Assembly (NCBI GenBank): GCA_023261525.1
Contig: JAHFOU010000002.1
Location: 1 to 25,842 of the forward strand
DNA length: 25,842 nt
Direction: 5' to 3'
Origin: Planctomycetota bacterium
GTDB lineage: Bacteria > Planctomycetota > SBBH01 > JAHFOU01
The position numbers were made by a program, and so were the translations under genes. Under the pieces are notes generated by a model. It searched no databases, was not told the DNA's origin, and saw only the letters and a list, made by a program, of their open reading frames with translations. Positions 123 to 3,478 of this stretch are shown one piece after another; position 1 is the first letter of the stretch, and every line of letters starts with the position of its first letter.

Positions 123-131
123 ATTGTAGCA
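123..131 (-). promoter_or_regulatory. Extended -10 element (TG-C-TACAAT) of a probably leaderless transcript
   Basis: Minus strand reads TGC TACAAT accttc ATG(116): 6-nt spacing and no SD sequence. Confidence 0.6.
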
Positions 132-146
132 GAGCCCCGCGGGGGG

Positions 147-776
147 TCAGAAGGGGAAGCGGGCCTGTTTCATCCGGTCGAAGGTCCCCCAGCTGGCCCG
201 GGCGATGGGGGGGGGCGTGCCGTGCTCCGCCATCCACCGGGAGAGGAAGGCCTTGGTCTTGGGGTCGGAGGGGTAGCCGGAGCCGATCTCGCCGTACTCG
301 GCCTCCATCCGGGAGATCCTCCGGTCCCGCGTCACCTTGGCCAGGATGGAGGCCGCGGAGACCACCGGGAAGCGGGCGTCGGCCCGGTTCTCGGCCACCA
401 GCTCGGGGAGGAGGGGGGCGATGCGCTCCAGGAGTCGGGCGCGGAAGCGGGGGATGCCCCGGGGCCCGACGGGGGCGTCCACGTAGACGGCGGAGGGCTT
501 GAGGGCCAGGATGCAGGCCGCGAAGGCCTCCAGCTCCAGCTCGTTGAGGTTCCTGCGGTCCATCTCGGCGGGCTGGATCTCCACGAGATGGACCCCGGCA
601 GCCAGGGCCTTCAGCGGGGCCTCGAGGGCCTCGCGGCGGGCCGGGGAAAGCACCTTGGAATCGCGGACGCCGAGGGCCTTGAGGGCCTCCAGGTCCTCCG
701 CGCGGACGGCGAAGCCGCAGACGACCATGGGGCCGAGGACGGGGCCGCGGCCGGCCTCGTCGATCCCGAGGATCAG
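147..776 (-). CDS. rnhB: Ribonuclease HII, archaeal/eukaryotic-like subtype (209 aa, probable CTG start overlapping the csp TGA)
   Basis: Last 209 aa of ORF 147..1676: [51 protein letters not shown]. No in-frame ATG/GTG/TTG lies near the expected N-terminus; CTG at 776-774 forms a CTGA overlap. Confidence 0.92.
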
Positions 777-982
777 GCCGTGGCCGATCGGGTCACCTTG
801 GCGGCCTGGGGACCCTTCTGGCCTTCGGTGATCTCGAAGGAAACCGGTTCCCCCTCGGCGAGGGTCTTGAAGCCCTCGCCCTGGATGGCGGAGAAGTGGA
901 CGAAGACGTCCCCCCCGCCCTCCTGCTGGATGAAGCCGAAGCCCCGCTTCTCGTCGAACCACTTCACCTTGCCGGTGGCCAT
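773..982 (-). CDS. cspA: Cold-shock domain protein (CspA family)
   Basis: [15 protein letters not shown] (RNP1) and DVFVHFSAI (RNP2); 69 aa. The exact paralogue letter cannot be determined. Confidence 0.95.
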
Positions 983-988
983 GGCGGG

Positions 989-3097
989 CTACTGGGCGTT
1001 CTTGGCCTCGGAGGGAGGCTGGGCCGCCTTGATGCTCAGCTTGACCTTGCCGGTGTCCTCCACGAGGAGGACCTTCACGTTGACGCTGTCGCCCATCTTC
1101 AGGTGGTCGCTGACGCGCTCGACGTAGCCGCCGGCGATCTCGGAGATGTGGCAGAGGCCTTCCTGGCCCGGCATGAACTCGATGAAGGCGCCGAAGTCCT
1201 TGATGCCCGTCACGCGGCCCGGGTAGATGCGGCCAACCTCGGGGGAGGAGGTCAGGCCCTCGATCCAGGCGCGGGCCTGGGCGATGTCGCCCCCGGTCTT
1301 GGAGAAGATGGTCACGCGGCCGCTGTCGTGGATGTCGATCTCGCAACCGGTCTTCTCCTGGAGCTCCCGGATCATCTTGCCGCCGGGGCCCACGACCTTC
1401 CCGATCTTGGAGGGGTTGATCATGACCTGGACCAGCTTGGGCGCGTGGGCGGACATGGTCGCGCGGGGGCGGGGCAGGGTGGAGAGCATGGTCTTGAGGA
1501 TCTGGATGCGGGCGTCGCGGGCCTGGTTCAGGATCTTGGGGATGAGCTCCAGGGGCAGGCCGGCGATCTTGATGTCCAGCTGGACGCCGGTGATGCCGTG
1601 CTGGGTCCCGGAGACCTTGAAGTCCATGTCGCCGTGGTGGTCCTCCTCGCCCAGGATGTCGGTCAGGAGCTTGCACTCCTTCCCTTCCTTGACGAGGCCG
1701 ATGGAGATGCCGGCCACCGGGTCCTTGATGGGCACGCCGGCGTCCATCATGGCCAGGGTGCCGCCGCAGACGGAGGCCATGGAAGTCGAGCCGTTGGAGC
1801 TCATGATCTCGCTGACCACGCGGACGGTGTAGGGGAACTGCTCGGCGCCGGGGACGACGGGCTCCAGGGAGCGCTCGGCCAGGTCGCCGTGCCCGATCTC
1901 GCGGCGCTTGGGCCCGCGGTTCGGCCAGGTCTCCCCGACCGACCAGGCCGGGAAGTTGTAGTGGAGCATAAAGCGCTTGAAGAACTCCTCGCGCAGGCCG
2001 TCGATCTTCTGCTCGTCCAGCGTCGTGCCGAGGGTCAGGATGCAGAGGGCCTGGGTCTCGCCGCGGTTGAAGATGGCGGAGCCGTGGACGCGGGGCAGGA
2101 CGCCGACCTCGCAGGAGATCTGGCGGAGGTCGCCCAGGCCGCGGCCGTCGATCCGCTTCTCGTCCTTCAGGATGCTGTCGCGGATGGCCTTGGTCTCCAG
2201 GTGTTCCCAGACCTCGCCGAGGCCGGTGTCCCAGCCGGGCTGGGAGCCGAACTCCTTCTGGAGCTCCACGGCGGCCCTGTCCTTGACCTCCTTCATGGCG
2301 GCGCGCCGCTCCTTCTTCCCCTTCACGAAGCAGCCCTTCGCGAAGGCGTCGTAGTAGCGGGACACGATGGTCTTCTTGAGGGGGTGCTCGGCGGGGGCGC
2401 CCGGGGCGGCCTGCTTGGGCTTCCCGGCCTTCTTCTGGAGCTCCCGGATCATCGAGATGATCTCCTGGCAGGCGTCGAAGCCCAGGCGGATGGCCTCGGC
2501 CACCACGGACTCGGGGGCCTCCTTGGCCTTGACCTCGATCATGACGGGGGCCTCGGCGGTGCAGACCAGCAGGAGGTCCAGGTCGGACAGGTCCATCTGT
2601 TGGATGGTGGGGTTGATGGTGAGCTTGCCGTCGACCTTGCCCACGCGGACGGCCCCGACGACGTTGTCGAAGGGGATCTGCGAGATGGCCAGGGCGGCGG
2701 AGGCGCCGTTGATGGCGCAGAGGTCGGGGTCGTTCTGGCGGTCGGAGGCCATGGCGATGGCGGAGATGGCCACGTCATCCTTGTAGTGCTCGGGGAAGAG
2801 GGGGCGGATCGGCCGGTCGATGGCCCGGCAGGTGAGGATCTCCTTGGTGGTGGGCCTCCCCTCGCGCTTGAAGAAGCCGCCGGGGAACTTGCCCGCGGCA
2901 TAGGTCATCTCGCGGTAGTCCACGGTGAGGGGGAAGAAGTCGATCCCGGCCCGGGGCTTGGCGGAAACCGCCGCCACCATGACCACGGTCTCGCCGTAGC
3001 GCGCCAGGACGGCGCCGTGGGCCTGCTCCCCGAGGCGTCCGGTTTCGAAGCTGAGCTCGCGGCCGGCGAAGGTCCGCTTGATCGTCGTTGCTGGCAT
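989..3097 (-). CDS. pnp: Polyribonucleotide nucleotidyltransferase (PNPase); ATG 3097 preferred over GTG 3106
   Basis: Two RNase PH domains ([40 protein letters not shown]), KH domain ([12 protein letters not shown]) and S1 domain (DFGAFIEF); directly downstream of rpsO. Confidence 0.97.
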
Positions 3098-3152
3098 CCG
3101 TTTCACACGTGCGCCCCGGTGGGGCGTCCTTCCCGACCCTCTGCTGGTTGCG

Positions 3153-3440
3153 CTACTTGCGCAGGCCGAGCTCAGCCAGAACCGCCGCGTGGCGCTTCGG
3201 CGCCGTGCGGGAAAGGTAGCGCAGCAAGGAGGCCCGCCGATTGACCATCTGGATGAGGCCGCGCCGGGAGGCGTGGTCCTTCGGATGGGCCTTCGTGTGC
3301 TCGGAGAGGTGGGTGATGTGCTCCGTGAGGAGCTTCACCTGCACGTCTGCCGAGCCGGTATCCTTGCCGCGAGCCCCGGTGGTCTTGGGCTGGGCCTTCC
3401 GGGTCTTGACCGGAGTTGGGGTCGTCATGGTCTGGGTCAA
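3153..3440 (-). CDS. rpsO: 30S ribosomal protein S15 (start TTG 3440 or ATG 3428)
   Basis: DTGSADVQ, KDHASRRGLIQMVNRR and C-terminal LGLRK; conserved rpsO-pnp synteny. Confidence 0.93.
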   Translation of the reverse strand: MTQTMTTPTPVKTRKAQPKTTGARGKDTGSADVQVKLLTEHITHLSEHTKAHPKDHASRRGLIQMVNRRASLLRYLSRTAPKRHAAVLAELGLRK

Positions 3441-3450
3441 CTGGCCCGGG

Positions 3451-3478
3451 ATTGTAGGGCGTGGGCGGAGGCTGTCAA
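3451..3478 (-). promoter_or_regulatory. Sigma70-type promoter for rpsO-pnp-csp-rnhB
   Basis: Minus strand TTGACA (3478-3473)-N16-TACAAT (3456-3451), a near-consensus match. Confidence 0.8.

Follow-up and report, generated by a model that had tools for sequence, protein, structure and literature searches.

An archaeal-type RNase HII gene at the end of an rpsO–pnp–csp–rnhB gene run in a groundwater lineage of Planctomycetota

The RNase HII gene of a groundwater planctomycete is, by profile and tree comparison, of the archaeal type, and the bacterial type is ruled out. It lies on the minus strand of a 25,842-nucleotide stretch of DNA, hereafter the window, which is positions 1–25,842 of contig JAHFOU010000002.1 of the Planctomycetota metagenome-assembled genome (MAG) GCA_023261525.1, as the last gene of a tightly packed rpsO–pnp–csp–rnhB run with dnaB nearby on the same contig. 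We propose, with a probability of about 0.8 for the explanation as a whole, that this archaeal-type enzyme stands in place of a bacterial rnhB, that the acquisition is old and by now ameliorated, that the gene has been inherited vertically behind pnp and would be transcribed as a cistron of the rpsO promoter, and that its translation starts at a CTG codon. The features on which the argument draws are the following.

147–776, minus strand: rnhB, archaeal-type RNase HII, 209 amino acids if the CTG at 776–774 is the start; stop codon TGA at 147–149.
761–756, 479–477 and 380–378, minus strand: codons of the catalytic residues (Asp10 and Glu11 of GIDEAGRG, D104 and D137, respectively), placed by alignment.
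774–776, minus strand: probable non-canonical CTG start of rnhB, overlapping the csp TGA as CTGA; the homologous codon in the related locus L115 is GTG.
786–788, minus strand: alternative near-cognate ATC start of rnhB, preceded by AAGGTG with a 5-nt spacer.
728–726, minus strand: internal ATG taken by automatic gene callers, giving a 193-amino-acid product without catalytic Asp10 and Glu11.
150–167, minus strand: C-terminal hexapeptide QARFPF of RNase HII, at the position of the archaeal PIP box.
773–982, minus strand: csp, cold-shock domain protein of 69 amino acids, 6 nt downstream of the pnp stop; PF00313 matched on the L032 orthologue.
989–3106, minus strand: pnp, polynucleotide phosphorylase (PNPase) of 705 amino acids; RNase_PH, PNPase, KH and S1 domains matched on the L032 orthologue.
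3153–3440, minus strand: rpsO, ribosomal protein S15, with a TTG start.
3451–3478, minus strand: promoter-like site TTGACA-16-TACAAT (11/12) upstream of rpsO, a consensus match only.
123–150, minus strand: weaker promoter-like site (9/12) that overlaps the stop codon of rnhB and would serve the gene that follows (ATG at 116), a consensus match only.

Translation of minus-strand positions 150–788 contains the motifs GIDEAGRG, GSGYPSDP and PIARASW. An earlier note on this DNA had quoted such motifs in assigning the gene to the archaeal/eukaryotic type, and a comparison of profile models bore the assignment out. The NCBIfam model for archaeal/eukaryotic RNase HII (TIGR00729) matched from end to end (profile positions 1–207 of 207), scoring 202.6 bits (cut-off 123.3; E = 7e-60), and it was the only NCBIfam model whose cut-off was passed. 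All eight bacterial RNase HII models tried (NF000595, NF000594, NF000596, NF000598, NF000600, NF010537, NF010538 and NF011119) fell below theirs, with NF000595 highest at 101.1 bits against 167 and the others at 42–78 against 243–364. The RNase HIII model TIGR00716 (rnhC) reached 45.4 bits against 161.2, and the window protein, at about 209 amino acids, is without the TBP-like, substrate-binding N-terminal domain that marks RNase HIII. The Pfam RNase_HII model (PF01351) was covered over 198 of its 199 positions (E = 1.3e-44). Among solved structures, the archaeal RNase HII enzymes of Thermococcus, Pyrococcus, Archaeoglobus and Methanocaldococcus matched at E values from 4e-50, for Thermococcus kodakarensis as the best match, to 3e-40, compared with about 1e-24 for eukaryotic RNase H2A and 1e-15 or weaker for bacterial RNase HII.

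The residues needed for catalysis and substrate recognition are in place. D10, E11, D104 and D137 (P0001 numbering) do not vary across an alignment that includes homologues from archaea and bacteria, in which GIDEAGRG aligns with the same motif near the N terminus of the T. kodakarensis enzyme; they match Asp7, Glu8, Asp105 and Asp135 of that enzyme, which we take to be its catalytic carboxylates. RNase HII senses the RNA–DNA junction through its GRG loop and a conserved tyrosine, and both the loop (G13-R14-G15) and Y172 of GSGYPSDP are invariant in the same alignment, with the R..W.T helix (RASWGT) also present and aligned. Because the catalytic set, the GRG loop and the tyrosine are all kept, the enzyme looks intact, and we infer that the window protein has RNase H activity, which in this family would be Mg/Mn-dependent cutting of duplex DNA 5′ of a ribonucleotide.

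Over its full length, the window protein is around 50% identical to the archaeal enzymes of known structure (T. kodakarensis 1io2 and 2dff, Pyrococcus horikoshii 1uax and Archaeoglobus fulgidus 1i39), sharing with them a size of about 210 amino acids, the DEDD residues, the GRG loop, the GSGYPSDP tyrosine motif and the C-terminal R..W.T helix. It differs from them in having a bacterial host, a place in an rpsO–pnp operon, no canonical start codon and a shorter Q-x-R-F-x-F tail where they have a PIP box. With bacterial-type RNase HII (rnhB; NF000595/PRK00015; Escherichia coli 7uwe and Thermotoga maritima 3o3f) it has in common the PF01351 superfamily, the fold, the catalytic chemistry and presumably the cellular role, but it scores below every curated cut-off for that type and stands across a 100/100 branch from the bacterial type of other Planctomycetota. 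Eukaryotic RNase H2A (3kio and 3puf) belongs to the same TIGR00729-type family and carries a GSGYPSDP-type C-terminal domain, but is far more distant; it is about 300 amino acids long and needs subunits B and C, whereas nothing at the window points to partner subunits. The window gene would be expected, on its predicted protein, to encode a functional, monomeric archaeal-type RNase HII, a type 2 RNase H.

Phylogeny placed the window gene in a part of the archaeal-type family that is populated by bacteria. A maximum-likelihood tree (LG+C20+F+G4 by PMSF) was computed from 118 sequences: the window itself, its close homologues from metagenomes, both types of planctomycete locus and some 75 named loci of species-representative genomes. 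The named sequences were all archaeal or bacterial, and the bacterial-type outgroup came from Planctomycetota only. A branch of length 1.3 with 100/100 support divides 13 planctomycete bacterial-type enzymes from all other sequences, the window falling on the archaeal-type side. The window groups with L032, P0006–8, P0010 and then P0038 in a clade with 100/98 support, and this clade is part of a larger group (96/93) in which every named member is a bacterium, namely WOR-3, Bipolaricaulota/Acetothermia, a MAG labelled 'proteobacterium' and the planctomycete G119. The affinity to Methanococcales or Thermococcales that the earlier note had suggested was not recovered, the nearest relatives outside the window's own clade being bacterial (Bipolaricaulota and WOR-3). 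Since the window clade sits in an all-bacterial group, the immediate donor to its lineage may well have been a bacterium, and the window copy belongs to a bacterial sub-branch of the archaeal family that is common to Bipolaricaulota and WOR-3. The enzymes of these two groups (for example P0064, P0083, L037 and L035) are the nearest named relatives at 47–50% identity; like the window protein they have bacterial hosts and no PIP box, but they belong to another phylum, end in other tails and show no linkage to pnp in the loci examined. In WOR-3, the same protein also carries a P-loop kinase domain of the Clp1 type.

Archaeal-type copies from Planctomycetota also occur elsewhere in the tree. A second clade (98/96, nine rows) includes all three sampled genomes of family f11, which measure 8.7–9.5 Mb, and a third group, on long branches, is formed by the sole three species representatives of the class to which the window belongs (L024, L009 and L025; G001–G003). 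The RNase HII of these three genomes is archaeal-type but divergent, scores 93–126 bits on TIGR00729, is without the R..W.T motif and is not encoded beside pnp or csp.

Rooted on the bacterial type, the tree nests bacterial-host groups among archaeal lineages. Movement from archaea to bacteria is the direction favoured under this rooting, which relies on a long outgroup branch. The backbone of the tree is weak, and AU tests rejected neither a single clade of all planctomycete copies (p = 0.31) nor a single clade of all bacterial copies except the Omnitrophota one (p = 0.36), so one transfer or several, by more than one route, may lie behind these copies. The data are best read as an old origin by transfer from archaea to bacteria, after which the gene was inherited vertically, lost in places and probably passed between bacterial phyla. 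A separate case is the RNase HII of an Omnitrophota MAG (L113, genome about 0.5 Mb), which is sister to that of Woesearchaeota L102 with 100/100 support and short branches; either an archaeal gene was transferred to this bacterium recently, or an archaeal contig was mis-binned.

Among bacteria, the possession of an archaeal-type RNase HII is not unique to the window. TIGR00729 was matched above its cut-off in 42 of 61 sampled Bipolaricaulota, where this is the majority form of the phylum, and in 13 of 201 sampled Planctomycetota, most genomes of which have the bacterial type or neither. Four of 14 control genomes (four archaea and ten bacteria) passed the cut-off, presumably the four archaea. 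The old interdomain transfer suggested in the earlier note therefore survives as to the archaeal type and the age of the acquisition, but the gene is no singular case. NCBI annotation already names such Acetothermia/Bipolaricaulota proteins 'ribonuclease HII'. Our literature search found no explicit description of archaeal-type RNase HII in bacteria or Planctomycetes, nor of an RNase HII with a clamp-binding motif, and no mention of the archaeal type in bacteria was found in the sections consulted of Kochiwa et al. 2007 (PMC1950709) and Brindefalk et al. 2013 (PMC3597702).

Two further forms of the family were seen in this survey. In many Planctomycetota (for example G004, G020, G031 and G036), the only RNase_HII matches are weak and split (profile positions 1–28 and about 117–175) and fall in open reading frames of about 320 amino acids, a pattern that suggests a divergent or RNase HIII-like enzyme. 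In a WOR-3 MAG (L035, 3821–5170, plus strand), one open frame of 450 amino acids contains both an archaeal-type RNase HII domain and a P-loop polynucleotide kinase of the Clp1 type (PF16575, E = 6e-31). That genome holds a second, weaker RNase HII-family match, at 115 bits compared with 161 for the archaeal-type copy.

The distribution and the tree also bear on an account that dispenses with interdomain transfer, in which both RNase HII types are ancient paralogues of early bacteria and the archaeal-like one was left in some lineages by differential loss. This account draws on the AU test, which leaves a single clade of nearly all bacterial copies unrejected (p = 0.36), on the standing of the archaeal type as the majority form of a whole phylum, Bipolaricaulota, and on a root made uncertain by the length of the outgroup branch (1.3). 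We nevertheless consider it improbable, as the archaeal type is patchy in Planctomycetota (13 of 201, with most genomes having the bacterial type or neither), the unconstrained maximum-likelihood tree nests the bacterial groups within archaeal diversity and many independent losses across Bacteria would be needed.

An old entry of the archaeal type into bacteria, which we prefer, is matched by the conservation of gene order around the window copy. Three other contigs, one of 59.8 kb from an NCBI metagenome, one of 29 kb from JGI and one from Logan, have the same rpsO–pnp–csp–rnhB order; their RNase HII shares 87% and their PNPase 84% identity with the window proteins. In L115, L116 and L117, rnhB directly follows pnp, with RNase HII 64–69% and PNPase 73–82% identical to the window; the window PNPase is 84% identical to that of L032 and 76% to that of L115. 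The pnp/rnhB junction of L115 (1884–4615) is a GTGA start/stop overlap. Counting L032–34 together with L115–117, pnp–rnhB adjacency extends over PNPase identities of 73–84% and RNase HII identities of 64–87%, a pattern that would reflect vertical inheritance within the window lineage as the gene after pnp. The order of genes on the P0013 contig also fits a position of rnhB directly after pnp. In L118, the 43 nt upstream of rnhB encode a pnp-like C-terminal peptide that is too short to confirm pnp, and rnhB probably follows pnp directly there too. Within 1.5 kb of the other planctomycete archaeal-type loci, pnp and csp are absent.

A csp gene between pnp and rnhB is confined to the window subclade (the window, L032–34 and the P0003 contig); the pnp–rnhB pair therefore looks older, suggesting that csp was inserted into it later, although loss of csp in the other branch may be the alternative. 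Recruitment of rnhB into an rpsO–pnp–csp unit, as the earlier note had it, is thus right in that rnhB is the last gene of that unit but not in the order of events, given that L115–L117 have rnhB directly after pnp and that csp seemingly came later. The two promoter-like sites found, against 0.2 expected from shuffles, include only one upstream of the four genes, the strong one before rpsO, and none was found between rpsO, pnp, csp and rnhB. Transcription as one operon from the rpsO promoter, with rnhB as the last cistron, is what this arrangement would predict.

In composition, rnhB resembles its surroundings, as had been claimed before: its GC3 is 0.967, within the 0.90–0.98 of six neighbouring genes, and its codon-preference score (0.718) is close to that of pnp (0.714). 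Such a gene would be fully ameliorated, having entered bacteria long ago. By comparison, it is very unlikely that the window lineage received the gene directly, and fairly recently, from an archaeon like the Thermococcales or Methanococcales. It is true that the best matches among solved structures are Thermococcus and Pyrococcus, at about 50% identity, but in the tree the window clade belongs to a group of 38 rows, with weak support (82/91), from which the Thermococcus rows (P0047 and P0090) are absent, and the nearest relatives outside the window clade are bacterial. No archaeal sequence exceeds about 55% identity to the window protein, the composition is fully host-like and synteny with pnp is retained across relatives down to 64% identity.

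The 5′ end of rnhB is unusual in the window lineage. No ATG, GTG or TTG occurs in frame upstream of GIDEAG for about 50 codons in the window, and none precedes GIDEAG in L032–34, L116 or L117. The L116 frame is closed by a stop 12 codons ahead of the motif, with none of the three codons in between. In this comparison the window, L032–34, L116 and L117 are thus without a canonical start, and L115 (GTG) and L118 (ATG) have one. A canonical start further upstream was ruled out by the same observations, namely the run of about 50 in-frame codons and the L116 stop. Because there is no canonical start upstream, automatic calls begin at the internal ATG and are truncated to 193 amino acids beginning MVV (P0002, from the window, P0003–5, P0009 and P0011–13). 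They cut off the first 16 residues, two catalytic ones among them.

The CTG at 776–774, whose first letter is the upper coordinate given in the earlier note, is the most likely start because it is homologous to the GTG of L115, which overlaps the pnp TGA as GTGA, and because it overlaps the csp stop (775–773) in the same manner. Translation probably begins at this CTG by termination–reinitiation coupled to the csp stop. Other near-cognate codons are available: like the window, L032 (5945–6003) and L116 have an ATC in frame shortly before GIDEAG, where L117 has GTC; L116 (470–553) and L117 (210–293) have in common a CTG eight codons before the motif; and L032 has only ATC and ATT candidates. 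Word depth at the locus is about threefold, so a single-base error at the window start codon is possible, yet the relatives are also without a canonical start. The rnhB frame is −1 relative to csp. A programmed −1 frameshift producing a Csp–RNase HII fusion was considered and rejected, as neither the window nor L032 has a slippery heptamer and the upstream gene in relatives is pnp, in varying frames.

Comparison of the window with L032 over the 15 aligned codons before the internal ATG revealed six synonymous changes and one conservative change (Ile/Val), and the same N terminus is encoded in relatives with canonical starts (P0006, P0008 and P0010); by these signs, the codons upstream of the internal ATG are translated. 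It is correspondingly hard to credit that the gene is inactive or decaying and yields only a 193-amino-acid product without the first two catalytic residues. The missing canonical start and the choice of the ATG at 728–726 by every gene caller would agree with decay, but the 15 upstream codons are kept at the protein level with mostly synonymous DNA differences, the relatives with canonical starts encode the same N terminus and the rest of the protein is constrained, with all catalytic and substrate-binding residues kept.

The host is a groundwater Planctomycetota MAG of 2.53 Mb in 405 contigs that is 72% complete, and the metagenome runs holding the window sequence are from groundwater. A contig built by a second assembler from the probable source run (X1) is identical to the window across 175–904. 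A chimeric contig is ruled out by the recurrence of its gene order in independent assemblies. That an archaeal fragment was joined to, or binned with, a bacterial contig is scarcely conceivable despite the fragmentation and thin coverage of the MAG (405 contigs, 72% complete, about threefold word depth), as rnhB shares bases with the stop codon of a bacterial csp and lies downstream of pnp and rpsO on one contig with dnaB nearby, the gene order is the same in NCBI, JGI and Logan contigs, GC3 and codon preference equal those of the neighbours and the second assembler gives 175–904 without difference.

The window rnhB is the single PF01351 match of the MAG. A separate bacterial-type rnhB or rnhC was sought and not found in this 72%-complete genome, nor were rnhA (RNase HI, both Pfam families) and PCNA. 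As dnaN (PF00712) was not found either and the assembly is 72% complete, gene absences in the MAG carry little weight, and the window gene is not established as the sole RNase H. In G011, a single-contig planctomycete relative with the archaeal type, that gene is the sole PF01351 match, which fits displacement of bacterial-type rnhB by the archaeal type. In the groundwater lineage of the window, too, the archaeal-type enzyme would replace the bacterial-type one.

The C-terminal tail sets the window enzyme apart from its archaeal homologues. A C-terminal PIP box, which binds PCNA, is typical of archaeal RNase HII, though not universal, and most archaeal homologue rows in our alignment end in one (Q-x-x-L-x-x-F). 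The window tail has no Q-x-x-L-x-x-F/Y box; in 13 of 13 members of the window clade, Q-x-[RK]-[FL]-x-F forms the extreme C terminus, right after the core. Tails of the second planctomycete clade are Q-x-x-[LIWF]-F-like, and Bipolaricaulota copies have tails such as ELSLDL and EISLFG. The consensus β-clamp motif, which Dalrymple and colleagues are said to have described in 2001, is reportedly a pentamer, Q-L-[SD]-L-F, or a hexamer, Q-x-x-L-x-[LF]. The tails found in bacterial hosts resemble such motifs, and an adaptation to the bacterial replisome is plausible. We suggest, tentatively and as something that may well prove wrong, that after transfer the PIP box was repeatedly remodelled into clamp motifs (Q-x-R-F-x-F in the window lineage, Q-x-x-L-F in the second planctomycete clade and E-L-S-L-D-L-like in Bipolaricaulota), together with the use, in the window lineage, of a non-AUG start (CTG or AUC) coupled to the csp or pnp stop.

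One consequence is for annotation: in the window lineage, automatic gene calls drop two catalytic residues, the start codon being non-canonical. More broadly, the window gene offers a clean, well-supported example of a core enzyme of replication and repair that is of archaeal type and takes the place of the bacterial form. Of the two bacterial phyla, Bipolaricaulota have the archaeal type as the norm, and in Planctomycetota it recurs. If the remodelling of the tails is true, an archaeal repair nuclease would have been re-wired onto the bacterial replisome; and if these tails bind the β clamp, they would amount to a natural experiment in re-plugging a transferred enzyme into a non-homologous sliding clamp.
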